From contig CACPDB010000003.1 in the NCBI GenBank assembly GCA_902632605.1, forward strand, positions 66,342 to 130,341: a DNA stretch of 64,000 nucleotides, written 5' to 3'. The DNA is from an uncultured SAR86 cluster bacterium. Its GTDB lineage: Bacteria > Pseudomonadota > Gammaproteobacteria > Magnimaribacterales > AG-339-G14. Position numbers and translations under genes: made by a program. Below are positions 22,776 through 45,105 of this stretch, in pieces. Under the pieces are notes generated by a model, which was given only the letters and a program-made list of their open reading frames with translations, did no database searches and was not told the origin of the DNA. The first letter of the stretch is position 1. Every line of letters starts with the position of its first letter.

Positions 22776-22849
22776 GGCTGAGTGGCAGAGTGGTCATGCA
22801 GCGGATTGCAAATCCGTCTACGCCGGTTCGATTCCGACCTCAGCCTCCA
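22776..22849 (+). tRNA. tRNA-Cys (GCA)
   Basis: GGCTGAG...CTCAGCC acceptor stem, anticodon arm GCGGA-TTGCAAA-TCCGT, TTCGATT loop, encoded CCA. Confidence 0.97.
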
Positions 22850-22916
22850 TTTTATTGCTGTTAATGAAACTATAAGAGCAATATAATATCTTTTTTTGCA
22901 TAATGTTAATGAATTT

Positions 22917-23003
22917 GCCCAGGTGGTGGAATTGGTAGACACAAGGGACTTAAAATCCCTCGAAGGCGACTTCGTGCCGGTTCAAGTCCGGCCCTGGGTA
23001 CCA
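22917..23003 (+). tRNA. tRNA-Leu (TAA)
   Basis: GCCCAGG...CCTGGGT acceptor stem, AGGGA-CTTAAAA-TCCCT anticodon arm, long variable arm, CCA. Confidence 0.97.
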
Positions 23004-23009
23004 CACTAA

Positions 23010-23948
23010 ATGACTGACTTAAACACAAATAAATCTTCAAACGATCAAATTGTTGAGGATGAAATTAATTTGCAAGAAATTGCTTCTGTTATTTGGTTAA
23101 GAAAGTATTTATTGCTTGCAGTTTCTTTTACGTTCTCTTTATTATCAGTTTTTTATTCATTACTTCTTCCGAATTACTATCAATCCGAGTCTATCTTGGT
23201 ATCGACAGATAAAAACAATTCTTCCCCTTTGGGTCAATATGCTGATCTTGCATCTTTAGCTGGACTATCTTTAAATGCTGGAGGTGAGAATGAAGTCTTT
23301 GAAACTATTGAACTTATCAAGTCAAGGGAGTTTGTAAAGCATATTCTAACTTTTCCCGACGTCTTACCATCAATCATGGCTGCTAAAGAATTTAGGAAAG
23401 ATACAAATGAATTAATTTATAAATCCGACATTTATGACCAATCGAGTAATGAATGGAAAGGAAATTCATTTAGATATGGTAAAAGCAAACCTTCATATCT
23501 AGAAGTTCACAAGATTTATTTATCTCAGCTTAATATTTTCCAGGATAAAAAAACTAATTTTATATCTATGAGTTTTGAACATATTTCACCAATTTTTGCT
23601 AAAGATTTTTTAAGTCTTGTTATCAGCGAAGCAAATAGTATTAAAAGACAAAGAGATTTGGATACAACCAATAATGCATTAAAATTTCTGACGGAAGAAT
23701 TCAAGAGAACTTCTTTAAAGGAAATTAGGATATCGATACAAAACCTTATAGAAAGTCAGTTAGAAACACAAATGCTTGCTAAGGTTAATGACGAATATAG
23801 TTTATCAATCTTAGAACCTCCTTTTGTTCCTGAGTTAAAATCAAGACCACAAAGATCCGTGATTGTAATTATCTCAACTTTTCTAGGCTTTTTGATGACA
23901 GTATTTTGTATACTTGTTTATCATTTTTTTTGGACTAAGAATAAATAA
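23010..23948 (+). CDS. wzz: Wzz-family polysaccharide chain-length determinant
   Basis: DEINL N-terminus, two TM segments, Pro-rich PPFVPELKSRP before the C-terminal TM. Confidence 0.85.
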   Translation: MTDLNTNKSSNDQIVEDEINLQEIASVIWLRKYLLLAVSFTFSLLSVFYSLLLPNYYQSESILVSTDKNNSSPLGQYADLASLAGLSLNAGGENEVFETIELIKSREFVKHILTFPDVLPSIMAAKEFRKDTNELIYKSDIYDQSSNEWKGNSFRYGKSKPSYLEVHKIYLSQLNIFQDKKTNFISMSFEHISPIFAKDFLSLVISEANSIKRQRDLDTTNNALKFLTEEFKRTSLKEIRISIQNLIESQLETQMLAKVNDEYSLSILEPPFVPELKSRPQRSVIVIISTFLGFLMTVFCILVYHFFWTKNK

Positions 23949-23970
23949 ATCCATTTCACTATAAATATTT

Positions 23971-24555
23971 ATGTCAGTTTTAGAAAATAAAATTCTTAAG
24001 AGAGCAAAGCTCTTAAAAACCAATGCAAGCTTACTTGAAACTAAAATTAAAGATATCTCAAAACTAGTTTCATCTGTAATAAAAAATAATGGAAAACTCA
24101 TGTTTTGTGGAAATGGCGGAAGCGCAGCAGAGTGTCAGCACATGTCAGCTGAATATTGTGCTACGTTAGATCATAAGAGGCCTAGACCCGGAATAGCATC
24201 AATATCTTTAACTACTGATTCATCCTTTCTAACAGCATGGACCAATGATTTCGGATATAAAGATATTTTTTCAAGGCAAGTTGAGGCCCTTGGAAAAAAA
24301 GGAGATTTACTTTTTTGTTATTCAACAAGTGGAAATAGTGAAAACGTTATAAACGCAGCAAAAACAGCTAAAAGGAAGGAAATAATAGTAATTGGCTTTA
24401 CTGGCAACCATAGAGCTACTAAATTAGAAAAATACTGCGATAAAGTATTTAAATCACCAAGTAAAGAAACACCCATTATTCAGGAATTTCATTCCTTGGT
24501 AGGACATGAAATTTGTTCTGAAGTTGAGAGCAAGCTATTTTTTAAAACCAAATGA
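23971..24555 (+). CDS. gmhA: Phosphoheptose isomerase (SIS domain)
   Basis: CGNGGSAA..QH..AE, NDFGY, FSRQV, STSGNS, IQE.H...H. Confidence 0.88.
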   Translation: MSVLENKILKRAKLLKTNASLLETKIKDISKLVSSVIKNNGKLMFCGNGGSAAECQHMSAEYCATLDHKRPRPGIASISLTTDSSFLTAWTNDFGYKDIFSRQVEALGKKGDLLFCYSTSGNSENVINAAKTAKRKEIIVIGFTGNHRATKLEKYCDKVFKSPSKETPIIQEFHSLVGHEICSEVESKLFFKTK

Positions 24556-25019
24556 AATATAAATTAATTGTTTATGATTTCGATGGAGTTATGACAAATA
24601 ATCAAGTTATCCTATCTGAAGATGGAAAGGAAAGTGTAATACTCAATAGGAGCGATGGTCTTGCAATATCTCTCATAAAAAAATTAAAAATAAATCAATG
24701 CATAGTTTCTTCAGAAACAAATCCTGTCGTTTCTAAAAGAGCAGAAAAGCTTGGAATAAGAACTTTCCAAAGCGTTTTCAATAAGTTAGAAACTATTAAA
24801 GCTTTATTAGAAGAAAATGATTTAAATCCCTCAGAAGTTGCCTTTATTGGAAACGATCTTAATGACTTAGAGGTTATAGAATTTCTTCCCCACTCATTCT
24901 GCCCAAAGGACTCCAACAAAAAAATCCTCGAATCGTCAACTTTTGTGCTCAATAAAAAGGGTGGAAAGGGTGTTATTATGGCCTTTTATGAGCACATAAT
25001 GGAGAATTCCTTTGGATAG
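24552..25019 (+). CDS. KdsC/KDN-9-phosphate-phosphatase-like HAD phosphatase
   Basis: DFDGVMT, SDG, GNDLND, GG.G motifs. Confidence 0.85.
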   Translation: MKYKLIVYDFDGVMTNNQVILSEDGKESVILNRSDGLAISLIKKLKINQCIVSSETNPVVSKRAEKLGIRTFQSVFNKLETIKALLEENDLNPSEVAFIGNDLNDLEVIEFLPHSFCPKDSNKKILESSTFVLNKKGGKGVIMAFYEHIMENSFG

Positions 25020-25845
25020 AATTTTTATAATTGGCGAGATCGGCATCAATCACAATGGGGATGTTGATATTGCCAAGCAATTAATAGATATTTCTGTTGA
25101 TGCGGGAGCAGATGCAGTTAAATTTCAAAAAAGGACTATAGATAAAGTTTATTCAACAGAAACTCTTGATGGTCCCAGGGAGAGTCCCTGGGGTAATACA
25201 CAAAGAGACCAAAAAGAGGGGTTAGAATTTGGTTTATCTGAATATCAGGAAATTGATAAGTACTGTAAATCTAAAAAAATAGAGTGGTTTGCCTCCGCAT
25301 GGGACTTAGAGAGTCAATTTTTTTTGAGACAATTTAACTGTAAGTATAATAAAGTCGCTTCTGCAATGATTGTATATGAAAATCTTTTAAGCGAAATAGC
25401 CTCAGAAGGCAAACATACTTTTATTTCAACCGGAATGGCTAAGATAGAAGATATTGATAAAGCGGTAGAAATCTTTCAAGAAAAAAAATGTCCTTTTGAA
25501 TTGATGCATACTGTTTCGACATATCCTATGAAAGATAGTGATGCAAACTTAAACATGATTACTACTTTAAAAGAACGATACTCATGCAGCGTTGGCTATA
25601 GCGGCCATGAGTCAGGCGTTGCTGTATCTGTAGCTGCTTGTGCCTTAGGTATCTCATCTCTAGAAAGACATATTACTTTGGATAGATCTATGTATGGATC
25701 TGATCAAGCTGCATCTTTGGAGCCTCAGGGCTGGAGAAACCTTATTGGGTCTGTTAGAAAAATCCCAGAGGCAATGGGAGATGGCATAAAGAGAATTCTG
25801 GATGAGGAGTTTCTCATTGCTAAAAAATTAAGAGAGCATCTTTAA
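25012..25845 (+). CDS. NeuB-family PEP-dependent ulosonic acid synthase lacking the SAF domain (TTG start)
   Basis: EIGINHNGD, KFQKR, STG, STYP, GYSGHE, ERHITLDR; ends at 277 aa. Confidence 0.92.
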   Translation: MDRIFIIGEIGINHNGDVDIAKQLIDISVDAGADAVKFQKRTIDKVYSTETLDGPRESPWGNTQRDQKEGLEFGLSEYQEIDKYCKSKKIEWFASAWDLESQFFLRQFNCKYNKVASAMIVYENLLSEIASEGKHTFISTGMAKIEDIDKAVEIFQEKKCPFELMHTVSTYPMKDSDANLNMITTLKERYSCSVGYSGHESGVAVSVAACALGISSLERHITLDRSMYGSDQAASLEPQGWRNLIGSVRKIPEAMGDGIKRILDEEFLIAKKLREHL

Positions 25846-25876
25846 GATTTTTCAACCTTATTAAATTAGCTTTGAA

Positions 25877-26614
25877 ATGAAAATCGTAGCTATCATTCCT
25901 GCAAGAAGTGGTTCTGAAGGTATTAAAAATAAAAACTTAGTCTTACTGGATAATCATCCTTTAATTGCTTACAGCATAGTTTTGGCAAAAGCGGTTCCCC
26001 AAATAGATAGAGTCATTGTTTCAACTGATTCAAAACGCTATGCAGAAATTTCCAAAAAATTTGGAGCAGAAGTTCCATTCTTAAGACCTGCTAAACTCTC
26101 TGGTAACAAATCATCTGATTATGATTTTATGCTTCATGCGGTAAAATGGTTCGAGAAAAACAGTAAGCCACCTGAATATTTTGTTCATCTTAGACCTACT
26201 ACTCCACTCAGAGATCCATCGATAGTAAAAAAAGCCATAGACCTTATGATTTCAAACAAAGAAGCTACAGCTTTAAGATCTTGTCACCTTGCTCCTGAGT
26301 CGCCATTTAAATGGTTTAGAATCAATAAAAAAGGATTTTTTACTAGTTTGTCAGGTAAAGATACAAATCTTGATGAATACAATGGTCCAAGACAAAATTA
26401 CCCAGACGTATTTATCCCTAATGGATATGTTGACATCGTTAAAAGTTCCGTAATAAAAGAACAAAAACTTTTGCATGGAAACAAAGTTTTGGCTTTTCAA
26501 ACACCCTTTTGTAACGAAGTAGATACGTTAGAAGAACTGGAACTGATTAAGTATCAACTAGAAACAAATGGTAGTAAATTAACAAAAAAACTTAATTTGA
26601 TCACAAAAAAATGA
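25877..26614 (+). CDS. Acylneuraminate-type cytidylyltransferase (NeuA family)
   Basis: IIPARSGS.GI.NKN, VSTDS, PFLRP, LRPTTPLR. Confidence 0.92.
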   Translation: MKIVAIIPARSGSEGIKNKNLVLLDNHPLIAYSIVLAKAVPQIDRVIVSTDSKRYAEISKKFGAEVPFLRPAKLSGNKSSDYDFMLHAVKWFEKNSKPPEYFVHLRPTTPLRDPSIVKKAIDLMISNKEATALRSCHLAPESPFKWFRINKKGFFTSLSGKDTNLDEYNGPRQNYPDVFIPNGYVDIVKSSVIKEQKLLHGNKVLAFQTPFCNEVDTLEELELIKYQLETNGSKLTKKLNLITKK

Positions 26615-27993
26615 GCGGATTTAATTTTAATCATAAGCCAGTAAAGGTTCCTCAAGTTAATAGCAAATTTAGAAAAATAGTTACAGATATTCCTGTACCT
26701 GAAGATCTTGAAATTCTTAAAAATGCTTATAAATTAGAATCTAGATCAATGCATGGTCAACTTCCGATTGTGTGGAGTAAAGCTGAAGACTTTCAAATCT
26801 ATGATTCCCATGGAAATTGTTGGCTTGACTTCACAAGTACAATTTTTGTCTCCAATGCAGGTCATGGAAATAGAAGAATCTTAGATGCTGTAAAAAGAGT
26901 TATAGATAAACCACTTATACATAGTTATACCTACCTTACTAAAGAAAGAAATGATTATCTAAAACTTTTGATAGAAAAAACACCGGAACAATTTGAAAAA
27001 GCTTTTCTTCTTTCAGCAGGAACAGAGGCTACAGAGTGCGCTCTCAAACTCATGCGCGAAAAAGGAATCAAAGATGGCAAAAGAAAAGGAGGAATAGTTT
27101 GTATTGAGGGAAACTGGCACGGAAGAACTTTGGGAGCACAAATGATGAGTTGGAATCCTCAACAGAAGGATTGGATTGGATATCATGACCCTAATATTTA
27201 TCACATACCTTTTCCTTATCCATGGGATGATGAAGCAATGTCTAAACCTGAAAAATTCTTTGAAGACTCAATTAAAAACTTATGTAAATCAAAAAACTTA
27301 GATCCTGAAAAAGACATTTGTGGTTTTATGCTAGAAACTTTTCAAGGATGGGGGTCTATTTTTTATCCAAAAGATTTTGTTAAAGCTATTTCTAATTATG
27401 GAAAAAGGAATGGAATCCTTCTGACTTTTGATGAAATGCAATCAGGCTTCGGAAGAACAGGAGAATTATTTGGCTATATGCATTACGATGTAGAACCAGA
27501 TTTAATTTGTTGTGGAAAAGGAGCAAGTTCGGGCTTTCCATTATCTCTTGTCTTAGGCTCTGCAGAAGTTCTAGATATTCCTGAAATTGGCTCAATGAGT
27601 TCAACTCATTCAGCAAACCCAATCGTATGTGCAGCGGGCAAAGCAAATTTAGAGTGTTTATTTGATGATGGACTTTTAGATAATTCAAAAATGCTGGGAG
27701 AAGTATTTATAGATAATTTAAATAGAATTAAACAAAGGTTCGGAAATCATATTAGTGATGTGCAAGGCAAAGGTCTCATTGGAGCTTTGATTTTTAATGA
27801 TGAAAACAGGACTCCTTTGGTTTCAATTTGCGATCAGGTTTCAGAACTATGTCTCCAGAGAGGCTTGCTTGTTGTGCATACTGGGAGAGAATCTATAAAG
27901 TTAGCTCCGCCCTTATCAATTACAGAGGAAGCTATGCTAGAGGGAATAAATGTTTTAGAACAGTCAATATATGACGTCATTTCAAAATTATGA
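26611..27993 (+). CDS. Class III PLP aminotransferase
   Basis: GHG, GTEATE, WHGRT, FDEMQSGFGRTG, CGKG. Confidence 0.92.
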   Translation: MSGFNFNHKPVKVPQVNSKFRKIVTDIPVPEDLEILKNAYKLESRSMHGQLPIVWSKAEDFQIYDSHGNCWLDFTSTIFVSNAGHGNRRILDAVKRVIDKPLIHSYTYLTKERNDYLKLLIEKTPEQFEKAFLLSAGTEATECALKLMREKGIKDGKRKGGIVCIEGNWHGRTLGAQMMSWNPQQKDWIGYHDPNIYHIPFPYPWDDEAMSKPEKFFEDSIKNLCKSKNLDPEKDICGFMLETFQGWGSIFYPKDFVKAISNYGKRNGILLTFDEMQSGFGRTGELFGYMHYDVEPDLICCGKGASSGFPLSLVLGSAEVLDIPEIGSMSSTHSANPIVCAAGKANLECLFDDGLLDNSKMLGEVFIDNLNRIKQRFGNHISDVQGKGLIGALIFNDENRTPLVSICDQVSELCLQRGLLVVHTGRESIKLAPPLSITEEAMLEGINVLEQSIYDVISKL

Positions 27994-28424
27994 TTCTTAA
28001 TACACGTCATGTTGGTTTGGTGGTAGAAGATATTGAGAAGTCTATAAAGTTCTATCAAGCTTTAGGGCTTACTGTTTGGAAAAGACAAATTGAATCAGGA
28101 GGTTTTATATCTACTGTAGTAGGTATAGATAATGTTGAGATTGAAACGGCTAAATTAAAAGTTTCTGATCAATCTATAATAGAGTTACTAGAATACAAGT
28201 CCCATAAAACAAAAAAAACAGCAGAATTCTATTCGTCAAACAAACATGGTTGTTCTCATGTTTCTTTTACTGTAGAAAATTTAGATGACATAGCGGGAAA
28301 AATAACTGAATTGGGAGGTTCTATTGTAAATTTACCATCCATTACAGACGATGGAGTATTTAAAGTCATGTATTGTCATGACTTAGATGGGATAATTATT
28401 GAGTTAGTTGAGGAATTGAAATAA
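27990..28424 (+). CDS. VOC (glyoxalase/epimerase-like) metalloprotein
   Basis: HVGLVVEDIE..IKFY, IELLEY, HVSF, D.DG..IELVE. Confidence 0.88.
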   Translation: MILNTRHVGLVVEDIEKSIKFYQALGLTVWKRQIESGGFISTVVGIDNVEIETAKLKVSDQSIIELLEYKSHKTKKTAEFYSSNKHGCSHVSFTVENLDDIAGKITELGGSIVNLPSITDDGVFKVMYCHDLDGIIIELVEELK

Positions 28425-29102
28425 ATGTCAAATTACTTAAAAGTTACCTATTCTAAAAAGAATCGACCTTATACTGATTATCCTCCAAAGTTAGTTAAAT
28501 TTTTATTTGATAAATTTTCATTAAAACCAGGTATGAAGATTTTAGAACCTGGTTGTGGCAGAGGAGAATTTTTAAAAATATTTAAGGATCTAGGATTGGA
28601 AGCTGTTGGTCTTGATATTTCAAACGAATTTGAAAAAGATTTTTCAAAAGATAGAATTAATTTAATTTTGGGCGATGTTGAAGACAAAAAAGGAATCCCT
28701 TTTCCAGATAATAGTTTCGATGTAATTTACAATAAAAGTTTTTTAGAACATCTCTCTAATCCAGATAAATTTTTGACTGAAGCATTTAGGATTTTAAAAC
28801 CTGGCGGTATTATTATCAGCTTAGTTCCCGACTGGGAATCAAATTATAAAACGTATTTTGACGATTTCACTCATAGAACTCCCTTTACAATGCCTTCTTT
28901 GAAAGACATATTAAAAATGACCAATTTTAGTGAAGTTGAAGTCAGTAAATTTAGACAACTGCCAATTGTTTGGAAATACCCTTTGCTTAATTATTTTTGT
29001 GCTTTTATAAGTCCTTTTATTCCAGTGAGAGTAAATAATAAGTTTTTAAGATGGTCTAGAGAGCTTATGTTGTTAAGCAGTGCAAGAAAAATTCTTAAAT
29101 AG
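28425..29102 (+). CDS. Class I SAM-dependent methyltransferase
   Basis: LEPGCGRG, DNSFD, LEH, LKPGG. Confidence 0.92.
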   Translation: MSNYLKVTYSKKNRPYTDYPPKLVKFLFDKFSLKPGMKILEPGCGRGEFLKIFKDLGLEAVGLDISNEFEKDFSKDRINLILGDVEDKKGIPFPDNSFDVIYNKSFLEHLSNPDKFLTEAFRILKPGGIIISLVPDWESNYKTYFDDFTHRTPFTMPSLKDILKMTNFSEVEVSKFRQLPIVWKYPLLNYFCAFISPFIPVRVNNKFLRWSRELMLLSSARKILK

Positions 29103-29103
29103 A

Positions 29104-29943
29104 ATGACAAAAAATATAGGGTTTATGCAAGGAAGGTTTTCTCCTATGGACGATGGAAAAATTCAATCTTTTCCATGGAAATACTGGCAAAATGAATTCG
29201 CTTTAGCATCAAAACATAACTTTGATTTGATTGAGTGGACAATAGACCAACATAAAATTATGCAAAATCCTTTAATGACTGAGGATGGCAGATATCAGAT
29301 CAAAAATTTATCAAATAAGTATAAGGTCAATATTCCTTCAGTGACTGGCGATTGCTTTATGCAATCTCCATTTTGGAAATTTTTTGGAGATGAAAAAAAA
29401 TCTAGAATAAATGATCTTTTAAGACTTGTTTTTGCTTGTTCAGATTTAGGAATAAGGATGATTGTCATCCCTCTTGTAGATGGAGGTTCTATAGAAAATA
29501 AAGACCAATTAAAATCATTATTGGATGTTTTAAATGAAATAGAACATAAGCTTAAAGATTTAGATTTAAAGATTCTTTTTGAATCAGATTTTAACCCTAA
29601 AGACTTAAAAAAATTTATAGACCAATTTAATCCAGAAGTATTTGGAATAAATTATGATATTGGTAATAGCGCATCGCTTGGCTACAATCACCAAGAAGAA
29701 TTACTATCTTATGGAAAGAATATTTATAATATCCATATTAAGGATAGGGTTTTAAATGGAGAAACTGTTCCTCTAGGAGAAGGACATGCTGACTTTTCTC
29801 TATTTTATAAAAGCTTAAGAGAAGTTAATTATTCAGGAAACTTTATTCTACAAACGGCTAGGTCAATAAATGGTGAACATGCCAAAGTATTAATAAAATA
29901 TAAGAAAATGACAGAGCTTTGCCTTAAAGAATATGGACTATAA
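29104..29943 (+). CDS. TIM-barrel sugar-phosphate isomerase/3-epimerase (xylose-isomerase-like/UlaE-like)
   Basis: IGFMQGR, E..D, YDIGN, HIKDR, G.G..DF. Confidence 0.8.
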   Translation: MTKNIGFMQGRFSPMDDGKIQSFPWKYWQNEFALASKHNFDLIEWTIDQHKIMQNPLMTEDGRYQIKNLSNKYKVNIPSVTGDCFMQSPFWKFFGDEKKSRINDLLRLVFACSDLGIRMIVIPLVDGGSIENKDQLKSLLDVLNEIEHKLKDLDLKILFESDFNPKDLKKFIDQFNPEVFGINYDIGNSASLGYNHQEELLSYGKNIYNIHIKDRVLNGETVPLGEGHADFSLFYKSLREVNYSGNFILQTARSINGEHAKVLIKYKKMTELCLKEYGL

Positions 29944-30691
29944 ATTAAAAGAAAAAAAAGTATTCATATCTGGCTCATCAAAAGGGATAGGTTTAAGTAT
30001 CGCTTTAAAGTTCATGAATGAAGGAGCAAATGTCATCATAAATTCAAGAAATTCGGATGATTTAATAGAATTAACCAATAAATATAAATCCTTAGATTAT
30101 ATTGAGGGAGATGTTTCTAAAACTGATGATGCTGTAAAGATAGCCTCTTTCATATCTCAAAAATTTAATCAATTAGATGTCTTAATTTGTAATGTTGGAT
30201 CTGGAAAGTCAGTACCTCAAGGAGAAGAAAACTATGAAGAGTGGCAAAAAACATTTTCCAAGAATTTTTTTAGTACAACTAATATTGTTGAAGCTACTAA
30301 GCATTTATTAGAAAAATCAAAAGGCTGTATTGTTTGTATATCTTCCATATGCGCTTTAGAACATATTCCTAATGCTCCAGTAACATATTCAGTTGCTAAA
30401 AACGCAATAAATTCTTACGTAAAGTTTCAATCTTTCCCCTTATCAAAGAAAGGAATCAGGATAAATTCTGTTGCTCCAGGGAACATAAATTTTCCTGGAT
30501 CTACTTGGGAAAAAAAAATTAATGAAAATCCACTCGAAGTAAAAAAAATGATCAAAGAAAATGTACCAATGCAGAGGTTGGGTTCAACAGATGATATTGC
30601 AAATCTCGTTCTTTTTTTATCTTCAGATTTATCTAATTTCACAACTGGCTCAATTTTCACATCTGACGGTGGTCAAACTCGTTCTTTATAG
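29933..30691 (+). CDS. SDR oxidoreductase
   Basis: SGSSKGIG, YSVAK, N..APG, DGG. Confidence 0.9.
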   Translation: MDYKLKEKKVFISGSSKGIGLSIALKFMNEGANVIINSRNSDDLIELTNKYKSLDYIEGDVSKTDDAVKIASFISQKFNQLDVLICNVGSGKSVPQGEENYEEWQKTFSKNFFSTTNIVEATKHLLEKSKGCIVCISSICALEHIPNAPVTYSVAKNAINSYVKFQSFPLSKKGIRINSVAPGNINFPGSTWEKKINENPLEVKKMIKENVPMQRLGSTDDIANLVLFLSSDLSNFTTGSIFTSDGGQTRSL

Positions 30692-30697
30692 AAAAAA

Positions 30698-31531
30698 ATG
30701 ACATTAGATAAATTTAGGTTAGAAAATAAAAATGTTCTAATCACAGGAGCAGCAGGTCTTTTAGGTAAAGAGCATGCATCTGCTATTTTAGAAGTAGGAG
30801 GTAAAGTTATCCTTACTGATGTTACAAAGAAGAAATTAGAAGATACAAAAAAAATTCTTTCTTCTCAATTTAATCCTAATTCTATTTTGATATCAAAAAT
30901 GGATGTTACAAAAAAGGAAGACATCCTAAAAGTTTCAAAGGATTTGTCTAAGTCCAAAATAAGAGTAGATGTTTTGATAAACAATGCAGCAATAAATCCA
31001 AAAGTTGGCAAGAAATTAAATCCTACAAAAAAATTAAGATTTGAAAATTTTTCTTCAGAAGATTGGAATCTGGAATTAGACGTAGGTCTTAAGGGAGCTT
31101 TTTTTTGTAGTCAAATCTTTGGAACAAAAATGGCCTCTGATTCCAAGGGCGGTGTTATTCTAAATATATCTTCTGATCTTTCAGTAATTTCTCCAGATCA
31201 AAGAATTTATCAACTTAAAGGAATTTCTGAAGATAATCAGCCCGTTAAGCCAGTAACTTATTCTGTTATTAAAAATGGTCTTATTGGCTTGACGAAATAT
31301 GTTGCAACGTATTGGTCTTTAAAAGGAGTAAGGTGCAATGCACTTTCACCTGGAGGGGTTTTAACAGATCAGGATAATGAATTCATTAAAAAATTAAATA
31401 GATTGATTCCTCTTGGAAGAATGGCAAGTAAAGATGAATACAGATCTACTGTTCAGTATCTTTGCTCGGAAGCTTCTTCGTATGTAAATGGACAAAATAT
31501 CGTAGTTGATGGGGGAAGAACAATTTGGTAA
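30698..31531 (+). CDS. SDR oxidoreductase (PtmA-like)
   Basis: TGAAGLLG, NNAA, YSVIK, SPGG, VDGG. Confidence 0.88.
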   Translation: MTLDKFRLENKNVLITGAAGLLGKEHASAILEVGGKVILTDVTKKKLEDTKKILSSQFNPNSILISKMDVTKKEDILKVSKDLSKSKIRVDVLINNAAINPKVGKKLNPTKKLRFENFSSEDWNLELDVGLKGAFFCSQIFGTKMASDSKGGVILNISSDLSVISPDQRIYQLKGISEDNQPVKPVTYSVIKNGLIGLTKYVATYWSLKGVRCNALSPGGVLTDQDNEFIKKLNRLIPLGRMASKDEYRSTVQYLCSEASSYVNGQNIVVDGGRTIW

Positions 31532-33282
31532 AAACTTTAGTTACAAGCTCACTAGAGTCAACTTGGCCAAAATCAGGAAAAATAATTTTTTTAGGTAAAT
31601 GGTGCTGTCTTTTTGATAGAAAAGATAAATGGTCTAAATTAGATTATCAAATATCAAATTTTCACTGGGATGATAGAAATAAACTTCAATCTGACTTTAT
31701 AAAACTTGAGACAACTTATGAGGAATTTCTTAATGAACTTCACCCTTATTTAAACAAACTACATAAAAAAAAATACTCAAAGAAATTCTGGAGAATTTTA
31801 ATTGGACCATGGTTATATACTTCCATAAATATTATTTATGACAGGTGGTTTATGCTTCAGAAAGTTATTTCTGAGGAAGGCAGCTTAAATAAGAGTATCT
31901 ACAAAGATTACAAAACCACTCTTATTTCTAGCGATATGGACGATTTCAATTCAAAAATTGAAACAGATCAATGGAATGAAGCATTATATTCTCTAATAAT
32001 TAATAAAATTTATAACTCGAATTTTTGCATTAATTTTTTAGATTCTAAAAAAGAAATGCCCCAAAAAGAGAGCAAAGTAGAGAAAAACTTTTTTTTAAAA
32101 TTTTTAAAGAAAATTTCAAATAAATTTGCGAATATTTTCTCAAAAGACTCAGATGTTTTTATTATTTCTTCTCATCTATCTTTATATAATCAGTTTTTAC
32201 TCTCTTTAAAACTAAATCAATTTCCAACTTTTAGGTTTAAGGACGAAAACAAATTGAAAATTAGTAAAGAATTTTCAGAAAGAGATGTTGGTTTATCTTT
32301 CTCATTAGACAAAACAGATGAATTCAATCGTGTCTTAAATAAAACTCTAATGCACTTAATTCCTCAAAGTTATTTGGAATCATTTGAAATTCTCCTTAAA
32401 AAAACACAAGTTCAAGGATGGCCTGAAAATCCAAAATCCATTTTTACTTCTAATGCATACAATTCAGACGATAAATTTAAATTGTGGGCTGGTTTAAAGG
32501 TTGAAAGAGGCTCAAAACTCATTATCGGTCAACATGGAGGAAACTTCGGCATGACTCCAATGGCAATTCATGAATCACATCAAATAGAAATTGCAGATAG
32601 TTGGTTATCTTGGGGGTGGAAAAATCCTGAAAAGAAAAACATTAATCCTGTTGGAAATTTCAAGTCTTCATTTAAAAGGGCAAAGTACTCACCTAGAGGT
32701 AGCATTCTTTTAGCTGGAATGACTTTGCCCAGATATAGTTATTACTTATATTGTGTACCAATAGCAAGTCAAGTTGAAGCTTACTTAAACGATCAAATAA
32801 AGTTTGCAAAATGTTTACCAAATGAAATGCTTAAATATTTAAATGTAAGGCTTTATTCTTTAGATAGAGGCTGGAATCAAAGAAATAGATGGGAATCTAA
32901 TTTTGGCAGACAAATATCTTTTGACAATAACAAAAAAAAACTAATTAGTTCATTTAAAAATTGCAGAGTATTTATAGGTACATATAATGCAACTACTTAT
33001 ATCGAGGCCTTTTCAGTAAACATGCCAACTATCCTTTTTTGGAACCCTCATCATTGGGAATTAAATAACGTAACAAAAAGTTTATTCCTAAATTTAGAAA
33101 ATGAAAAAATTTTTCATTCAACTCCAGAAAGTGCTGCGGAGCACCTTATTAAGATTTGGGATGATGTAGATTCCTGGTGGTTTAGTGCAAACGTTCAAAG
33201 TTCAATTAATGATTTTAAAAAAACCTTTTCTAAACAAAATCCCCAAGTTCTTAATTCCATAAAAACTTGTTTAACTTCATAA
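31525..33282 (+). CDS. Putative glycosyltransferase, LIC12162-like family (TTG start)
   Basis: FLG.WC, W.ILIGPWL, QHGG, SWGW, YNATT.E pattern recalled for this family; context. Confidence 0.7.
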   Translation: MVKTLVTSSLESTWPKSGKIIFLGKWCCLFDRKDKWSKLDYQISNFHWDDRNKLQSDFIKLETTYEEFLNELHPYLNKLHKKKYSKKFWRILIGPWLYTSINIIYDRWFMLQKVISEEGSLNKSIYKDYKTTLISSDMDDFNSKIETDQWNEALYSLIINKIYNSNFCINFLDSKKEMPQKESKVEKNFFLKFLKKISNKFANIFSKDSDVFIISSHLSLYNQFLLSLKLNQFPTFRFKDENKLKISKEFSERDVGLSFSLDKTDEFNRVLNKTLMHLIPQSYLESFEILLKKTQVQGWPENPKSIFTSNAYNSDDKFKLWAGLKVERGSKLIIGQHGGNFGMTPMAIHESHQIEIADSWLSWGWKNPEKKNINPVGNFKSSFKRAKYSPRGSILLAGMTLPRYSYYLYCVPIASQVEAYLNDQIKFAKCLPNEMLKYLNVRLYSLDRGWNQRNRWESNFGRQISFDNNKKKLISSFKNCRVFIGTYNATTYIEAFSVNMPTILFWNPHHWELNNVTKSLFLNLENEKIFHSTPESAAEHLIKIWDDVDSWWFSANVQSSINDFKKTFSKQNPQVLNSIKTCLTS

Positions 33283-33295
33283 ATGAGGCGCTGTT

Positions 33296-35071
33296 ATTTT
33301 TAAAACAATAAAAAAATCTTATTTTATTCTTCAGACTAATAAAAGAAAATTACCTTTGTTCTTCATATTGTTTTGTTTTCTATCGCTTCTTGACTTATTA
33401 GGGATTGGTTTGTTGGGTCCTTATATAGCTCTTTTTACAGATTCTTCAAAAATTAGCGAGCAGGAAATTTTTTTACTTGCATATGAGTTTATTGGAACAA
33501 ATCTTGAACCATTAACTTTAATGGGACTTTTTTTAATCACAATATTTGCATTTAGAACTGTTTCTGCAATCTTTGTTAATAGGTTTATTTTATTTTATTG
33601 TAGAGATATACAAATATCTCTGAGGACAAGCATGATGAAGTCTTATCAGAGTATGAACTATCAGAAATTTATTTCTTATGATAGTTCAGATGCCATATCA
33701 AATATAACCATACTTACAATGTATTTTACCAATAACGTGCTTTATATGACTTTGAAAGCTTCAGCAGAGCTGCTTTTAGCTTTTTTTATTATCTCTTTTC
33801 TGTTTTTTATAAATCCTGTGCTTGTACTGATTTTAATTGGAGGGTTATTTTTACTTATTCTTTCTTATAGCAGTTTTTTTAAAAATTTAATGAGCTCTTA
33901 TGGAAAAAAAATAAATCTTGCTAATGCAAGTGCAATACAAGCAGTAAAACAAGCTTTGGAAGGTTTAAAAGAAATAAGAGTTTTGGGAAAAGAAAATTTT
34001 TTTTACAACAGACTTGAAGATAACTCAAAGCAATACGCAAATTTACATGCTAATTCAGTATTAATAACCACTGCCTCTAAATATTTTATTGAATTTTCCG
34101 TAATGACATTTTTCATTGTCATAATATCTGCATCATCTTTTTTTGTTTCTAGTGAAACTTCTAACGTCTTAGGAGTAATAGGGATGTTTGCTTTTGCCGC
34201 AATAAGACTCCTACCTGGAGTTACCTTAGTATCATCAGCAATTCTTCAATTAAGAGCTCACAAGAATACTGTTGATAGACTTTTTGACGCTATACAAGAT
34301 CTTAATTTAGAGGTTGAAAAAGAAAAGTTAATAAAAGTTCAGGATTATTATGAACCTATAAAAGATAGTACTTTTAAGTCTATATCTTTAAAAGATATAA
34401 CCTATAGTTATCCTTCTTCAAAAAGAAAGGCCTTAATGAATATTTCTATGAAGATCGAGAAAGGAGAGTCTATTGGAATAATTGGCTCCTCTGGTTCAGG
34501 TAAGACAACCCTAGTTGATATTTTTTTAGGACTCTTGAAGCCTGATGATGGAACAGTTTTATTAAACGATAAGCCTATGGAAGATAATCTTGATTCTTGG
34601 AGAAAAATGACAGCATATATTCCCCAAGAGACACTAATGATAAATGAAAGTTTGAAATCAAATATTAAATTATCTGAAAAGTTTTTGGAAAATGATGAAA
34701 AAAAGCTTTCTGAGATAATTACTCAAGCAAAACTTGAGGATGTTGTAAAAAATCTCCCAGAAGGAATAGAATCAAATTTAGGAGAAGGAGGAATTAAGCT
34801 CTCAGGAGGTCAAAGACAAAGAGTTTCTTTGGCACGAGCAATATTTCATTCAAGAGAACTTTTGGTTTTTGATGAAGCTACGAGCGCCCTAGATATGGAA
34901 ACTGAAGACGAAGTTATGCAAGAGATAAAAAAGATAAAGGGAACTAAAACACTTATTTTAATTGCACATAGACAAGATACCTTAAGATTTTGTGACCGAA
35001 TATTTGAATTAAAGGATGGTAAAGTGATAAGAGAAGGAACCCCAAAAGAAATATTAAATAATATTAGTTAA
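33296..35071 (+). CDS. ABC transporter permease/ATPase, PglK/Wzk-like glycan flippase (true start uncertain)
   Basis: Six-TM N-half; GSSGSGKTT, LSGGQRQR, DEATSALD; frame open from 33287. Confidence 0.85.
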   Translation: MFKTIKKSYFILQTNKRKLPLFFILFCFLSLLDLLGIGLLGPYIALFTDSSKISEQEIFLLAYEFIGTNLEPLTLMGLFLITIFAFRTVSAIFVNRFILFYCRDIQISLRTSMMKSYQSMNYQKFISYDSSDAISNITILTMYFTNNVLYMTLKASAELLLAFFIISFLFFINPVLVLILIGGLFLLILSYSSFFKNLMSSYGKKINLANASAIQAVKQALEGLKEIRVLGKENFFYNRLEDNSKQYANLHANSVLITTASKYFIEFSVMTFFIVIISASSFFVSSETSNVLGVIGMFAFAAIRLLPGVTLVSSAILQLRAHKNTVDRLFDAIQDLNLEVEKEKLIKVQDYYEPIKDSTFKSISLKDITYSYPSSKRKALMNISMKIEKGESIGIIGSSGSGKTTLVDIFLGLLKPDDGTVLLNDKPMEDNLDSWRKMTAYIPQETLMINESLKSNIKLSEKFLENDEKKLSEIITQAKLEDVVKNLPEGIESNLGEGGIKLSGGQRQRVSLARAIFHSRELLVFDEATSALDMETEDEVMQEIKKIKGTKTLILIAHRQDTLRFCDRIFELKDGKVIREGTPKEILNNIS

Positions 35072-35089
35072 TTATATTTTCGTAATCAT

Positions 35090-36418
35090 ATGTGGCAAGC
35101 ATTATCAAATAATCCTGTTTTGCAATTATTTGTAGCAATCTTTATTTTAATTTTATTTTCATTTGATAGAAATTTACTCGTCACCCAATATCTATTTGGT
35201 GGAAGGTCGAATATTTGGTTGATAACAATTTTTGCTACTTTCCTAGTTATGTATTTTCTGTTTTTAATGACATTGCTCAAGGGTAGGTTAGTAATTAGAA
35301 AGAAAGATAGGGGATTAATGTTGATAACCTTTTTATTAGCTCTATATTTTTTATTACACGAATTGATTTTTAGCGACTCACTTGTTTCTATTAAATATAG
35401 CGTTTTTTTGTTTTTAATAAGTATTGCCCTTAGTATTAGATATAACTTTTTCTTCATTTTTAAAGTATTAGGTTACCTAGGAGGTGTGATAGGGTTTATA
35501 GTAATTTTTCAGCAAATTGCTCTTTATATTCTTACTAGTGGCAATATAAGTAGTTTTGACGTCGCTATCAGTGGCGAATTGTGGGGAAGGTCTCCATCAT
35601 GTGATTTTGTAGCCCCACTTGGCATTGGACTTTTTGAAAGATGTGCTGCATCTCCAGATTTTGTGGTTGGTGATTTCATAATAAATAGATCAATCTTTTT
35701 TTCCACTGAACCAAAATATGCCGCATCAATTCTTTTAGTAACATTTTCATGTCTTTTGATATCAACAACTAAGTCGTTTGCAAGAAATATCTTTATATTC
35801 TCGCATTTGCTTAGTTTCGTTTTTATTTTGGCTGGGAGTGCTTTTGTAATACTATTTTTATCTCCAATAATCGTTTACTTAAGATTTATTGGAGCTAAAT
35901 TTTACTCTGCTCTAATTTTTATTGCTCCAGTATTAATCTTGCCTACTTTAGTACAATTTTTTATTAGTGTTGCTGGTGAAGAAAATTTCATATTGTTTAG
36001 ACTTCTAGGCGCAGCAACTGATATAGGTGATGGAAGCTTTAATAGTTATTCTATATTTGGGGAATCATTTGGAAGTTCTTGTGATGGACAAGCCTGCAAA
36101 GACCAAGGCCTACTTGGAAGTTTAACATCAACCTACGGAGTGATTGGACTTCTTCTTTTTTGGTGGTTTTTCTATAAACTTGTCTGCCCTATGTTTGAAA
36201 GTTATAAAATTCAAAAAATTAATATATCGCAAAAAATTGGATTTATGATTCTTTTAAATACATACGTAGTATTTAATATTTATTTTTTTAGCGATATTTT
36301 TAACATGTTTGGGCTATTTATTATTCTGACTTTAATATTACTACCAGGTTATTTAGTTTCTAAGAACGAAGAAAAAATGCCTTCTCAAAATGAAACTGTT
36401 CTTAAAGGGGGAGTTTAA
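35090..36418 (+). CDS. Multi-TM protein, Wzy polymerase/ligase-like
   Basis: About 10-11 hydrophobic segments, R...F.TEP motif, two larger loops with Cys pairs. Confidence 0.55.
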   Translation: MWQALSNNPVLQLFVAIFILILFSFDRNLLVTQYLFGGRSNIWLITIFATFLVMYFLFLMTLLKGRLVIRKKDRGLMLITFLLALYFLLHELIFSDSLVSIKYSVFLFLISIALSIRYNFFFIFKVLGYLGGVIGFIVIFQQIALYILTSGNISSFDVAISGELWGRSPSCDFVAPLGIGLFERCAASPDFVVGDFIINRSIFFSTEPKYAASILLVTFSCLLISTTKSFARNIFIFSHLLSFVFILAGSAFVILFLSPIIVYLRFIGAKFYSALIFIAPVLILPTLVQFFISVAGEENFILFRLLGAATDIGDGSFNSYSIFGESFGSSCDGQACKDQGLLGSLTSTYGVIGLLLFWWFFYKLVCPMFESYKIQKINISQKIGFMILLNTYVVFNIYFFSDIFNMFGLFIILTLILLPGYLVSKNEEKMPSQNETVLKGGV

Positions 36419-37291
36419 ATGTCTAAAGTAATTGTATTTGGAGGAAGTGGCTTTATTGGCTCTCATGTTGCAGATGAACTGACTAAAGCTAACCATGATG
36501 TAACTATTTTTGATAAAAATAGTTCTACTTATTTAAAAGAAAATCAAAAAATGATTCTCGGAGATCTAAATGATGTGGATTTGGTAACTAAAGCAATAGA
36601 GGGAAAAGAAGTTGTATACAATTTTGCAGCTTTATCTGATTTAAATGTCGCAATGGAAAAACCCATTGAAGCAATTAAAAATAATATTTTGGGGAACTGC
36701 CACATTTTGGAAGGTTGTAAGACTAATTCTGTTAAAAGATTTATATATGCAAGTTCTGTGTATGCTAATAGCAGAGAAGGGGGATTTTATGGTTTGACTA
36801 AAAAGTCAGCCGAATCTTATGTAGAAGAATATCAAAGGCATTATGATCTAGACTTTACTATTTTAAGATATGGATCGCTTTATGGTCCAAGGTCAGATAA
36901 GCATAACGGCCTTAGAAAGATTATATCAACCGCAGTTTCTCATAAAGAATTAAAATATATAGGAAATAAAGATTCTGTAAGAGAATATATTCACGTTCAA
37001 GATGCTGCAATTGCTTCTGTTCAAGCTTTAAATAAAAAATATAAAAATAAAAAAATAATACTTACCGGTCATCAACCAATAAAAATAATTGATCTCTTGA
37101 ACATGCTTGCTGAAATAATGAATTACTCTAAAGATACTATAACTTTTTTAGATGAGAATTATGACGGTCATTACATTCAGACTCCATATCATTACGATTC
37201 AGATTTAGCTTTGAAATATGTTCCAGATTCATATGTTGATTTTGGAGAAGGTTTAATTGAATTAATCAAAGATTGTGAAGAAAATAAATAA
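36419..37291 (+). CDS. NAD-dependent epimerase/dehydratase (extended SDR)
   Basis: GGSGFIG, YGLTK, RYGSLYGP, REYIHV.D. Confidence 0.9.
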   Translation: MSKVIVFGGSGFIGSHVADELTKANHDVTIFDKNSSTYLKENQKMILGDLNDVDLVTKAIEGKEVVYNFAALSDLNVAMEKPIEAIKNNILGNCHILEGCKTNSVKRFIYASSVYANSREGGFYGLTKKSAESYVEEYQRHYDLDFTILRYGSLYGPRSDKHNGLRKIISTAVSHKELKYIGNKDSVREYIHVQDAAIASVQALNKKYKNKKIILTGHQPIKIIDLLNMLAEIMNYSKDTITFLDENYDGHYIQTPYHYDSDLALKYVPDSYVDFGEGLIELIKDCEENK

Positions 37292-37315
37292 AAATTATTT
37301 TAGCTACCAGGTACT

Positions 37316-38080
37316 ATGACCAGATTAAAAAAAATAAAATCAATAAGATCTAAATTAAGACTAGGAAAACTAAGTCTTGGAAGTTGGATGCAAATTCCTA
37401 ACTCTTCTGTTGCAGAAATAATGGGTTTTTCAGGATATGACTGGATAGCAATAGATTTAGAGCACGGTTCAATTTCCATAGATACTTTACCTGATTTGTT
37501 CAGAGCAATAGAGCTCGGAGGAAGTCTTCCATTAGTTAGACTAGCCCAAGCAAATGCAAAAGATTGTAAACAGGCATTAGATGCTGGAGCAGGGGGAGTT
37601 GTAGTCCCAATGATTGAATCTGCTGAACAATTAAAGTTTATCAAGGCTCAATCAAGTTGGCCTCCTATTGGAGCCAGAGGAGTTGCATACACAAGGGCAA
37701 ATCTTTTCGGAGGAACTTTCAAAGATTACATGAAAGAAGCTCAGTCCCCATTAATTATTGCAATGATAGAAACTAAACAGGGACTTGAAAACTTAGAAGA
37801 AATTCTTGAAGTAAAAGGGCTAGATGCAATAATGATTGGTCCTTACGATTTATCTGCCTCAATTGGTAAAACGGGTGATTTTAAAAGCATGAAGTATTTG
37901 GACGCCATGCGTATGATCCTAGATTTTGCAAAATCTAAAAATGTACCTTGTGGGATACATATAGTTGAACCATCTGAAACTGAATTAAAAAAAAGAGTCA
38001 AAGAAGGTTTTAGATTCATTGCATATTCTATGGATAGTGTGATGCTTCGAAATTCAGCTAAATTAAAGATTTCAGAATAA
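37316..38080 (+). CDS. HpcH/HpaI-family pyruvate aldolase
   Basis: DLEHG, LDAGAGG, PP.G.RG, MIET, GPYDLS. Confidence 0.92.
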   Translation: MTRLKKIKSIRSKLRLGKLSLGSWMQIPNSSVAEIMGFSGYDWIAIDLEHGSISIDTLPDLFRAIELGGSLPLVRLAQANAKDCKQALDAGAGGVVVPMIESAEQLKFIKAQSSWPPIGARGVAYTRANLFGGTFKDYMKEAQSPLIIAMIETKQGLENLEEILEVKGLDAIMIGPYDLSASIGKTGDFKSMKYLDAMRMILDFAKSKNVPCGIHIVEPSETELKKRVKEGFRFIAYSMDSVMLRNSAKLKISE

Positions 38081-38099
38081 AACGTTTTAGAAATACACA

Positions 38100-38837
38100 T
38101 TGAAAATTTTAGCAATTATACCGGCGCGCATGGGAAGTAGTAGATTTCCTGGAAAGCCTATGGCAAAAATTAATAATAAACCGATGATAGGACATGTTTT
38201 TGAAAGAGTGAATAAATGCAATCTCTTAGACAAGACAGTTGTAGCTACTTGCGATGAGGAAATAAGTGAGTATGTTAAAAGTATAAATGGAGAGGTAGTT
38301 ATGACTAGCGATAGTCATGAAAGAGCCAGTGATAGAGCCGCAGAAGCTCTTGTTTACCTTGAAAATAAATATAATACGACATATGACATTATTGTTATGG
38401 TTCAAGGGGATGAGCCAATGACTCATCCAGATATGATTAATGAGGCGGTCAAGCCAATGATGCAAGATTCATCAATTGGTGTTGTTAATTTATATGCTGA
38501 TATAAAGAATGATAGTGAATTTAATGATAGAAATTGTATAAAGGTAGTTTTAGATAGATATGATGATGCCATTTATTTTTCTAGAGAGCCAATACCCCAT
38601 AAAAAGAAGGGAAGCGATATTTCTATGAAAAAGCAAGTATGTATTATTCCTTTTAAAAGGGATTTTCTATTTGAATACCAAAACATGTCTCCTACTCCTT
38701 TAGAAGTTGCAGAATCTATAGATATGATGAGGGTTTTAGAAAATGGCTATAAAGTAAGAATGGTCCACACCCGACATGAAACTCAAGCAGTTGATACAAA
38801 GGAAGATCTAGAAAAAGTGCAGTTACTAATGTCTTAA
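38100..38837 (+). CDS. kdsB: KdsB-like CMP-ulosonate synthetase (TTG start)
   Basis: IPARMGSSRFPGKP, VATCD, QGDEP, YFSR.PIP, LE..E. Confidence 0.85.
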   Translation: MKILAIIPARMGSSRFPGKPMAKINNKPMIGHVFERVNKCNLLDKTVVATCDEEISEYVKSINGEVVMTSDSHERASDRAAEALVYLENKYNTTYDIIVMVQGDEPMTHPDMINEAVKPMMQDSSIGVVNLYADIKNDSEFNDRNCIKVVLDRYDDAIYFSREPIPHKKKGSDISMKKQVCIIPFKRDFLFEYQNMSPTPLEVAESIDMMRVLENGYKVRMVHTRHETQAVDTKEDLEKVQLLMS

Positions 38838-38860
38838 TAATTTTTATTTCATTTTTTTAA

Positions 38861-40678: not shown

Positions 40679-40762
40679 TTTTTTCCTTTTTAAATAATCT
40701 AGTGAATTAGATTTTTTAAGCAAATTAAATTACGAGTAGAATTAGGTTTTAGGGTTGAAGAA

Positions 40763-42519: not shown

Positions 42520-42533
42520 AAAAATTTTAAGTT

Positions 42534-43592: not shown

Positions 43593-43593
43593 A

Positions 43594-45040: not shown

Positions 45041-45105
45041 AAGTTTAATTTTTCCCTATTCTAAAAAACTGTCTCAGATATTTTATTTATAAAAATTTAT
45101 GGAAA

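Follow-up and report, generated by a model that had tools for sequence, protein, structure and literature searches.

What does an isomerase of the heptose pathways do at the head of an operon for an activated ulosonic acid? This question is raised by a stretch of 64,000 nucleotides from an uncultured SAR86 cluster bacterium (assembly GCA_902632605.1, contig CACPDB010000003.1, positions 66,342 to 130,341), referred to here as the window, in which four open reading frames (ORFs) of the plus strand overlap or nearly abut at 23971..26614, as an earlier reading of the sequence alone (the original prediction) had claimed. They encode a GmhA-type SIS isomerase (23971..24555, 194 amino acids), a HAD phosphatase of the KdsC/KDN-9-P-phosphatase type (24552..25019, 155 amino acids), a NeuB-family synthase without a SAF domain (25012..25845, 277 amino acids, TTG start) and a NeuA/PseF-type synthetase of cytidine monophosphate (CMP)-ulosonates (25877..26614, 245 amino acids). 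The first two genes overlap by 4 bases and the next two by 8, and a 31-base gap separates the synthase from the CMP-transferase.

The reading preferred here, at a probability of roughly 70%, is that the operon makes a CMP-activated ten-carbon (C10) ulosonic acid from D-glycero-D-manno-heptose 7-phosphate (heptose-7-P) for a surface polysaccharide. A transketolase, the gene of which is present elsewhere in the genome, would provide the flux of sedoheptulose 7-phosphate (sedoheptulose-7-P), from which the isomerase, going by its family, would make heptose-7-P. The synthase would condense the latter with phosphoenolpyruvate (PEP) to a 3-deoxy-dec-2-ulosonate 10-phosphate, of the D-erythro-D-galacto configuration if the face selectivity is that of the synthesis of KDN (3-deoxy-D-glycero-D-galacto-nonulosonic acid), and the phosphatase would remove the phosphate, as its family and marker residues suggest. 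The sugar might then be oxidised, epimerised, aminated and methylated by short-chain dehydrogenases/reductases (SDRs), a TIM barrel, an aminotransferase, a VOC protein and a methyltransferase encoded further along the operon, while the CMP-transferase would activate it and a LIC12162-type protein would transfer it. We infer every one of these reactions; what is observed directly are the families, the intactness of the genes, their co-occurrence and the exchange of front ends.

The association of gmhA with one NeuB clade

The argument starts from 301 genomes of one family (that of genome G011), which were grouped by NeuB identity alone into clade A, to which the window's synthase belongs (at least 59%), and clade B (43-54%). 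A strong gmhA (E<=1e-42) was found in all 21 clade-A genomes, two of which have partial NeuB genes, and always on the same contig, abutting in 13 cases and within 3 kb in 18, as against 2 of the 18 clade-B genomes and 12 of the remaining 262. A heptose kinase of the HddA or HldE type is present in 12 of the 14 other genomes with a strong gmhA and in a single clade-A genome, which has its gmhA next to hddA at a distance of 22 kb. From these gene contents, it appears that GmhA partners either a heptose kinase or the clade-A synthase in this family, the latter taking the place of the kinase as consumer.

A survey for gmhA, HAD and a short neuB without hldE or gmhB had been proposed together with the original prediction, and gmhA does travel with clade A, with the kinase mostly absent, rather than with the genes for adenosine or guanosine diphosphate heptose (ADP/GDP-heptose). 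The condensation of heptose-7-P with PEP to a C10 ulosonate 10-phosphate, put forward at the same time, gains support from this linkage of gmhA to clade A without kinases, which is comparative and not biochemical. As for the more conservative option, that the isomerase supplies a hexose or pentose phosphate for KDN or for 3-deoxy-D-manno-octulosonate (Kdo), its hexose part is weakened because clade-A genomes hold a type II mannose-phosphate isomerase (18 of 21) as often as those of clade B (14 of 18); a supply of Man-6-P (mannose 6-phosphate) is thus not what they lack.

Beyond this family, the best 80 of 560 confirmed clade-A loci (59-76% identity; gene calls by BLAST thresholds) come under 20 phylum-level labels, archaea included, and gmhA is found at the locus under 10 of these labels. 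These loci differ in gene order; 42 of them hold gmhA (within 1.5 kb in 37) and 40 a KdsC-type HAD, with neither hddA nor hddC in any of the 80. Gene fusions are also found, joining HAD to GmhA in seven loci and the CMP-transferase to HAD in four, and in all four of the HAD-GmhA fusions scanned, the fused HAD is of the KdsC/KDN type and not of the GmhB type. The search for gmhA covered 50 of the 80 genomes, including 26 chosen because their clade-A locus has none; a strong gmhA turned up elsewhere in 14 of the 26 and a full-length one with the His/Glu/Asp/Thr/Gln/His residues in six more, i.e., 20 in total. In 12 loci without a strong gmhA, the neighbourhood of NeuB (61 of 64 candidate ORFs scanned) revealed no gene that would replace gmhA. 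At locus L028 of Prochlorococcus, the clade-A neuB is surrounded by housekeeping genes only, and the only gmhA, a distant one, lies elsewhere in the genome.

The source genome of the window (G000, 92.6% complete) carries one NeuB and one gmhA, and its clade-A synthase is the only one in the 229 genomes of its order, the best match in the other 228 having 39% identity. In G000, neither a GT9 heptosyltransferase, nor hldE above cut-off, nor hddA was found, and gmhB- and hddC-like matches are weak (29% or less); from the set that makes up an ADP/GDP-heptose pathway (kinase, GmhB, nucleotidyltransferase and heptosyltransferase), there is only a weak RfaE-II-like domain. The original prediction had also stated that neuC, legB, pseB, gmhB, the hldE kinase and hldD are missing from the window, which holds for the part scanned (20 ORFs, from 23010 to 42519), with the qualification that only neuC, gmhB and the kinase gave no match at all, while legB, pseB and hldD gave weak matches, far under cut-off and all to the epimerase ORF at 36419-37291. 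The transketolase is present, and transaldolase, manA and a full GMP-PMI were not found in G000. Heptose-7-P would thus be a metabolite with no known sink in this genome, yet G000 alone does not decide the matter, because mannose 6-phosphate (Man-6-P) has no clear source there either.

It might also be supposed that gmhA is a mere passenger belonging to a separate heptose glycan, and that NeuB takes its substrate, Man-6-P or a different hexose phosphate, from central metabolism, considering that glycan islands are mosaic, that 38 of the best 80 clade-A loci have no gmhA in the sequence examined (many being short), and that the window contains a nucleotidyltransferase with weak similarity to RfaE-II. 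On the other hand, G000 has no kinase, GT9 or clear GmhB to serve such a glycan, the kinase is absent from 20 of the 21 clade-A genomes of the family, fusions of HAD and GmhA exist, and gmhA was found in none of the 13 other genomes of the genus of G000, all of which makes this a very improbable account.

Residues of the isomerase, phosphatase and synthase

The isomerase has a GmhA as its best solved match (E 1e-43), and the H/E/Q/H catalytic pattern already noticed in the original prediction corresponds to His57, Glu61, Gln171 and His179 at the positions of solved GmhAs, to which Asp93 and the STSG loop can be added. The catalytic E-Q-H served as the criterion for a GmhA (PMC4697000), and the window protein has the catalytic Glu, not the Gln of DiaA-like proteins. 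It belongs to PF13580, and its score against TIGR00441 is 159.7 bits, below the cut-off of 209.45, as are those of GmhAs from loci with HddA and GmhB (159-174 bits); across the genome searches, only one match passed. In the tree, its sisters are the GmhAs of G152, G178 and G124, all three from loci with HddA and GmhB, and the clade-A-linked GmhAs retain the canonical residues and are scattered without forming a clade of their own (at least 9 changes forced), as expected if ordinary GmhAs had been recruited many times. The conversion of sedoheptulose-7-P into heptose-7-P is therewith the likely activity of the window enzyme.

The phosphatase scores below the cut-offs of NF058599 (103.9 bits) and TIGR01670 (101 bits), and its Glu55 and Lys66 align with Glu56 and Lys67 of the KDN-9-P phosphatase of Bacteroides, the first position being Arg in Kdo-8-P phosphatases; this marker position is shown in the alignment by the solved variant 4HGQ. 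We take the Glu/Lys pair to indicate a KDN-9-P phosphatase role, and Glu55 is found in all 40 KdsC-type HADs of the clade-A loci. The removal of the terminal phosphate from the condensation product is a likely task of this enzyme.

In the synthase, the only match is to PF03102 (233 bits), and the gene is intact, in agreement with the earlier claim that it ends at 277 amino acids without a SAF domain. A truncation or an error of assembly was considered and is ruled out by the lengths of its 120 best relatives (272-294 amino acids), by a model with a complete barrel and a C-terminal helix (mean predicted local distance difference test score, pLDDT, of 95.8) and by an independent metagenome contig that spans the stop codon without gaps. 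The model has a NeuB fold, matching 6NCS with Z 35.6, meningococcal NeuB with about 35 and the KdsA type with about 23, and the metal and PEP sites of the barrel (Glu9, Lys37, Gln39, Lys114, His199, Glu218, His220 and Asp231) are invariant in 96 sequences. The scores against TIGR03569 (244 bits, cut-off 399.65) and TIGR03586 (176.5 bits, cut-off 340.25) are both too low for membership.

Clade A retains the equivalents of meningococcal Glu25, Glu234 and both histidines, which are presumably metal ligands, and differs in having Met119 at Glu134, Trp at Phe112, Lys272 at Phe288 and nothing at Arg314. The names of the meningococcal residues are those of PMC8208679, where the alpha2-beta2 loop of the human enzyme is described as favouring a phosphorylated substrate. 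Of the two SAF-less clades, A is fixed at 15 positions where B differs; seven of these fall in the stretch 46-71, among them Gln67 in place of Tyr and Gly70 in place of Lys, and these changes could enlarge the substrate pocket of clade A.

In a tree of 98 sampled rows, clade A is monophyletic (support 99) and sister to clade B, and it is 50% identical to an actinobacterial fusion of CMP-transferase, HAD and NeuB. These relatives lack both SAF and gmhA, and SAF-less NeuBs are a known environmental group with no chemistry assigned in the available text of PMC8208679; the hint of a C10 product that the original prediction had seen in the missing SAF domain could therefore not be upheld, and SAF loss was rejected as a marker. 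In phage and plasmid collections, no record of 60% identity or more was found, the best reaching 43% and 59%. A three-domain fusion of about 730 amino acids (CMP-transferase, HAD and SAF-less NeuB) occupies an unannotated stretch of Nonomuraea gerenzanensis (L085:6633-8825), with no gmhA within 8 kb.

These affinities could also be cited for KDN, if the isomerase converts fructose 6-phosphate to Man-6-P (identical stereochemistry with one carbon less) and the operon makes KDN-9-P and, from it, a tailored CMP-KDN. The phosphatase has the corresponding markers, gmhA-free SAF-less synthases form the sister group of clade A, to which the actinobacterial fusion is also related, G000 has no manA or full GMP-PMI, and the synthesis of KDN-9-P from Man-6-P is established (PMC6200933). 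Nevertheless, gmhA is kept in clade A only, even though its genomes hold mannose-phosphate isomerase as often as those of clade B, the linked GmhAs are spread over the tree with canonical residues, and an interchangeable front end, described below, comes with HddA, GmhB and HddC. This explanation, the main competitor of the C10 route, is considered unlikely.

The CMP-transferase (PF02348; TIGR03584, 114.9 bits) reaches at most 47 bits with KdsB models, and the solved structures closest to it are CMP-Neu5Ac synthetases. This bears on the idea of a second pathway to Kdo, in which the isomerase would make arabinose 5-phosphate and of which a SIS isomerase, a KdsC-like phosphatase and a CMP-transferase do form the outline. 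It is barely credible, however, with a synthase of the NeuB and not the KdsA type, a Glu in the HAD where Kdo-8-P phosphatases have Arg, a NeuA/PseF-like transferase, and a genome that already has, besides its DAHP synthase, a second gene of the DAHP/KdsA family and a KdsB above cut-off.

One cassette behind exchangeable front ends

The coupled run does not end with the CMP-transferase, being extended by seven further plus-strand genes to 33282 in an eleven-gene surface-sugar operon. These encode a class III aminotransferase dependent on pyridoxal phosphate (26611..27993, 460 amino acids; PF00202, 282 bits), a VOC/glyoxalase-fold protein (27990..28424, 144; PF00903), an S-adenosylmethionine (SAM) methyltransferase (28425..29102, 225; PF08241), a xylose-isomerase-like TIM barrel (29080..29943, 287; PF01261), the best solved match of which is the L-ribulose-5-P 3-epimerase UlaE (E 2e-7), two SDRs of PF13561 (29933..30691, 252; and the PRK09186-like 30698..31531, 277; NF006619, 172.8 bits) and a LIC12162-family putative transferase (31525..33282, 585; TIGR04331, 454 bits, above cut-off). 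Given the seven genes for tailoring and transfer behind the CMP-transferase, the end product is probably something other than the bare deculosonate, dephosphorylated and then activated, that had originally been envisaged.

Among solved structures at E<=1e-40, the aminotransferase has no relative specific for sugars; its likely task is to aminate a keto intermediate on the way to the sugar, and likely roles can be proposed from their families for the methyltransferase (N- or O-methylation), the TIM barrel (epimerisation next to the keto group) and the LIC12162-type protein (attachment of the CMP-sugar to the polysaccharide). The identity of the CMP-transferase to that of the window is 41-67% in loci with this aminotransferase (n=35) and 27-58% in those without it (n=47), which hints that amination precedes CMP activation.

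The aminotransferase occurs beside the NeuBs of clade A and of a further clade, C; it is accompanied by the VOC protein across loci and partnered in the loci examined by SDRs or by a radical-SAM/SPASM enzyme, and the LIC12162-type transferase closes the cassette in both A and C loci. In six clade-A loci without SDRs (L009, L013, L033, L040, L052 and L059), an aminotransferase stands with the radical-SAM/SPASM protein, which is likely the alternative oxidant there; the aminotransferase is of class IV in L040 and L052, and of class III otherwise.

Clade C was met in five genomes of the order of G000, as a NeuB-SAF-TIM protein of 628-649 amino acids, 36-39% identical to the window NeuB, which lies near gmhA; GT9 was not found in these five genomes. 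One of them may be compared directly with the window: G181 carries the same cassette in the same order (50-72% identity), with HAD and the short NeuB replaced by gmhB, CBS-hddA and the clade-C NeuB. The best 80 out of 578 clade-C loci from metagenomes of marine and freshwater environments group into 62 clusters at 90% identity and 18 at 80%. Of these 80, 73 carry hddA, 66 gmhA and 58 hddC, and none has a KdsC-type HAD. Where the flanks reach 3 kb or more on each side (40 loci), hddA is never missing, the TIM barrel is present in 34 cases and the second SDR in 35. The clade-C operon (L236-L240, L256-L335) has the order gmhB-hddC-CBS/hddA-neuB(SAF,TIM)-gmhA; no close hddC was found in G181, G152 and G178.

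All nine of the window's cassette genes have their best match in a C locus and not in an A locus, although the query behind the C set came from the same order, which favours C. In the aminotransferase tree (36 rows), the window joins five C rows at 100/99, and at least 3 changes between A and C are forced, a pattern that points to repeated swapping of the A and C front ends before one cassette. Clade C, which also has no residue matching Arg314, is sister in the NeuB tree of 98 sampled rows to a 748-amino-acid type seen without gmhA in L254, where the CBS domain is carried by NeuB itself (CBS-NeuB-SAF-TIM). As A and C each have a gmhA-free sister group, the link with heptose therefore arose twice. 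A NeuB with a COG1082 domain has been linked to KDN in Serratia (PMC9000132), and the TIM domain of clade C may therefore release a free aldose.

There is also a third NeuB type of 354-365 amino acids, with a C-terminal extension past the barrel (L362-L365, in G306, G532, G329 and G153). In all four of these loci, parts of the cassette are present together with GmhA, a transaldolase and an HddA-like kinase, and three of them have a phosphatase that is inositol-monophosphatase-like or GmhB-like; the transaldolase may either raise the supply of sedoheptulose-7-P or yield an octose phosphate and, from it, an eleven-carbon acid.

Given these three types, a broader view is favoured by a narrow balance: C10 sialic-like sugars would be common and overlooked, at least two NeuB lineages having switched independently from mannose to heptose, one with heptose-7-P and a phosphatase and the other via heptose-1-P or GDP-heptose, with a third, transaldolase-linked lineage perhaps making C11 acids, and all of them feeding one exchangeable cassette across marine bacteria and archaea.

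Several points weigh against the derivation of the window's sugar from heptose. The genomes of the family test are related, not independent, and mostly incomplete; 6 of the 26 genomes with a gmhA-less clade-A locus have no clear gmhA (divergent SIS proteins only in three, none in the other three); and the lack of manA and a full GMP-PMI in G000 leaves room for a local supplier of Man-6-P. That the product of clade B is KDN is an assumption, and the heptose nucleotide of the clade-C loci could be a separate building block.

The isomerase itself adds two further points, since it has Thr65 where Arg is usual (91% of 53 A-linked GmhAs and 97% of those linked to C), four residues after the catalytic Glu, and since the same Thr is found in the GmhAs of all four transaldolase-bearing loci of the third NeuB type, with their HddA-like kinase and phosphatase, which makes an eight-carbon substrate possible. 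This Arg is, we assume, dispensable in GmhA of E. coli. In the lincomycin pathway (LmbN/LmbR), LmbN acts on octulose-8-P, and a similar activity here would lead to an eleven-carbon ulosonate. A transaldolase, however, was not found in G000 and is present in only one of the best 80 clade-A loci, and the nearest cassettes (L236, L263 and L276) have ordinary GmhAs with Arg, so that an eleven-carbon product seems a slim prospect beside the C10 acid preferred here.

Known ulosonic acid routes and the surrounding island

The route to CMP-KDN via KDN-9-P of Bacteroides thetaiotaomicron (BT1714/BT1713) and Prymnesium parvum (PMC6200933) is similar in that a NeuB-family synthase acts on an aldose phosphate, beside a KdsC-type phosphatase with the Glu/Lys markers and together with a NeuA-type CMP-transferase. 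The window and clade A differ in the tight link to gmhA and the GmhA fusions, the lack of SAF, the tailoring cassette and the 15 fixed positions, and the dependence on gmhA argues against membership of this route. The ADP/GDP-heptose pathways (GmhA, HldE or HddA, GmhB and HddC) share the first enzyme, with its catalytic residues retained, whereas G000 is without the kinase, a clear GmhB, HddC and GT9, the clade-A NeuB apparently replacing the kinase. With the NeuB, LegI and PseI synthases of N-acetylneuraminic, legionaminic and pseudaminic acid, there is a shared barrel fold with Glu9, His199, Glu218, His220 and Asp231, in contrast to the missing SAF domain and Arg314, the scores below family cut-offs and an operon without genes for amino-sugar precursors. 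Compared with the Kdo pathway, the module has no KdsA-type synthase, no Arg-marked KdsC and no KdsB-type transferase.

A C10 backbone on CMP can exist as a size class, given that C10 CMP-ulosonates have been proposed by mass spectrometry (MS) in Magnetospirillum gryphiswaldense, with the formula C16H26N2O9, i.e., a legionaminic-like sugar plus CH2 with two N-acetyl groups and one O-acetyl group, to which the available text of the two reports assigns no genes (PMC8157484; bioRxiv 10.64898/2026.04.20.719630). In the BLAST table of the authors (PMC8157484), the best matches to KDN-type synthases are only 28-33% identical, and both this and the formula indicate that another route is probably used, leaving the Magnetospirillum sugar unsupported as a product of the window pathway; the measured sugars being legionaminic-like, they do not confirm the heptose route, which also has to be counted against it. 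The acinetaminic acid modules (aciA-E, PMC5595891) resemble the operon in having SDRs after an ulosonate synthase, predicted there to alter the stereochemistry of the side chain, though they act on CMP-legionaminic acid, unlike in the scheme proposed here.

No NeuB pathway fed by heptose was found in the open-licence literature of PubMed Central and bioRxiv, in keeping with the original prediction, which knew of no established pathway to such a sugar. The module is a real and widespread pathway variant, probably with a C10 ulosonic acid as its product. In the sources available, the known pathways lead to ulosonic acids of 7, 8 or 9 carbons, and those with ten are so far MS signals without genes. 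If the proposal is true, four small enzymes would make up the first C10 ulosonate route to be defined and would provide a biocatalyst for chain-extended analogues of sialic acid, thousands of "N-acetylneuraminate synthase" labels would be corrected, and a new class of sugars would be placed on the surfaces of abundant plankton, clade A being carried by 21 of the 301 genomes in the sample of one family.

A polysaccharide island starts here behind two tRNA genes, and the operon follows wzz as its first block, the border on the plus strand (22776..23948) consisting of tRNA-Cys, tRNA-Leu and the wzz chain-length regulator (23010-23948). In one RNA run of a related strain, contigs cover 25 of 30 bins, a coverage that does not show transcription.

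Further along the island, a second CMP-sugar module (36419-40678) consists of an NAD epimerase, an HpcH-type aldolase, a KdsB-type transferase above cut-off and a LIC13510-type protein, and represents a possible aldolase route to another ulosonate. It is followed by a third module (40763-47007), with an unassigned HAD-like ORF, a 2-hydroxyacid dehydrogenase, an ORF that resembles glyceraldehyde-3-phosphate dehydrogenase (GAPDH) by eye, a CMP-transferase, a second HpcH-like aldolase and an orphan of 633 amino acids without a match in Pfam or NCBIfam. Finally, a CTP_transf_like nucleotidyltransferase, weakly similar to RfaE domain II, is fused to a mannose-phosphate-isomerase cupin at 55983-56759, and a copy of this fusion with 69% identity is held by locus L236.

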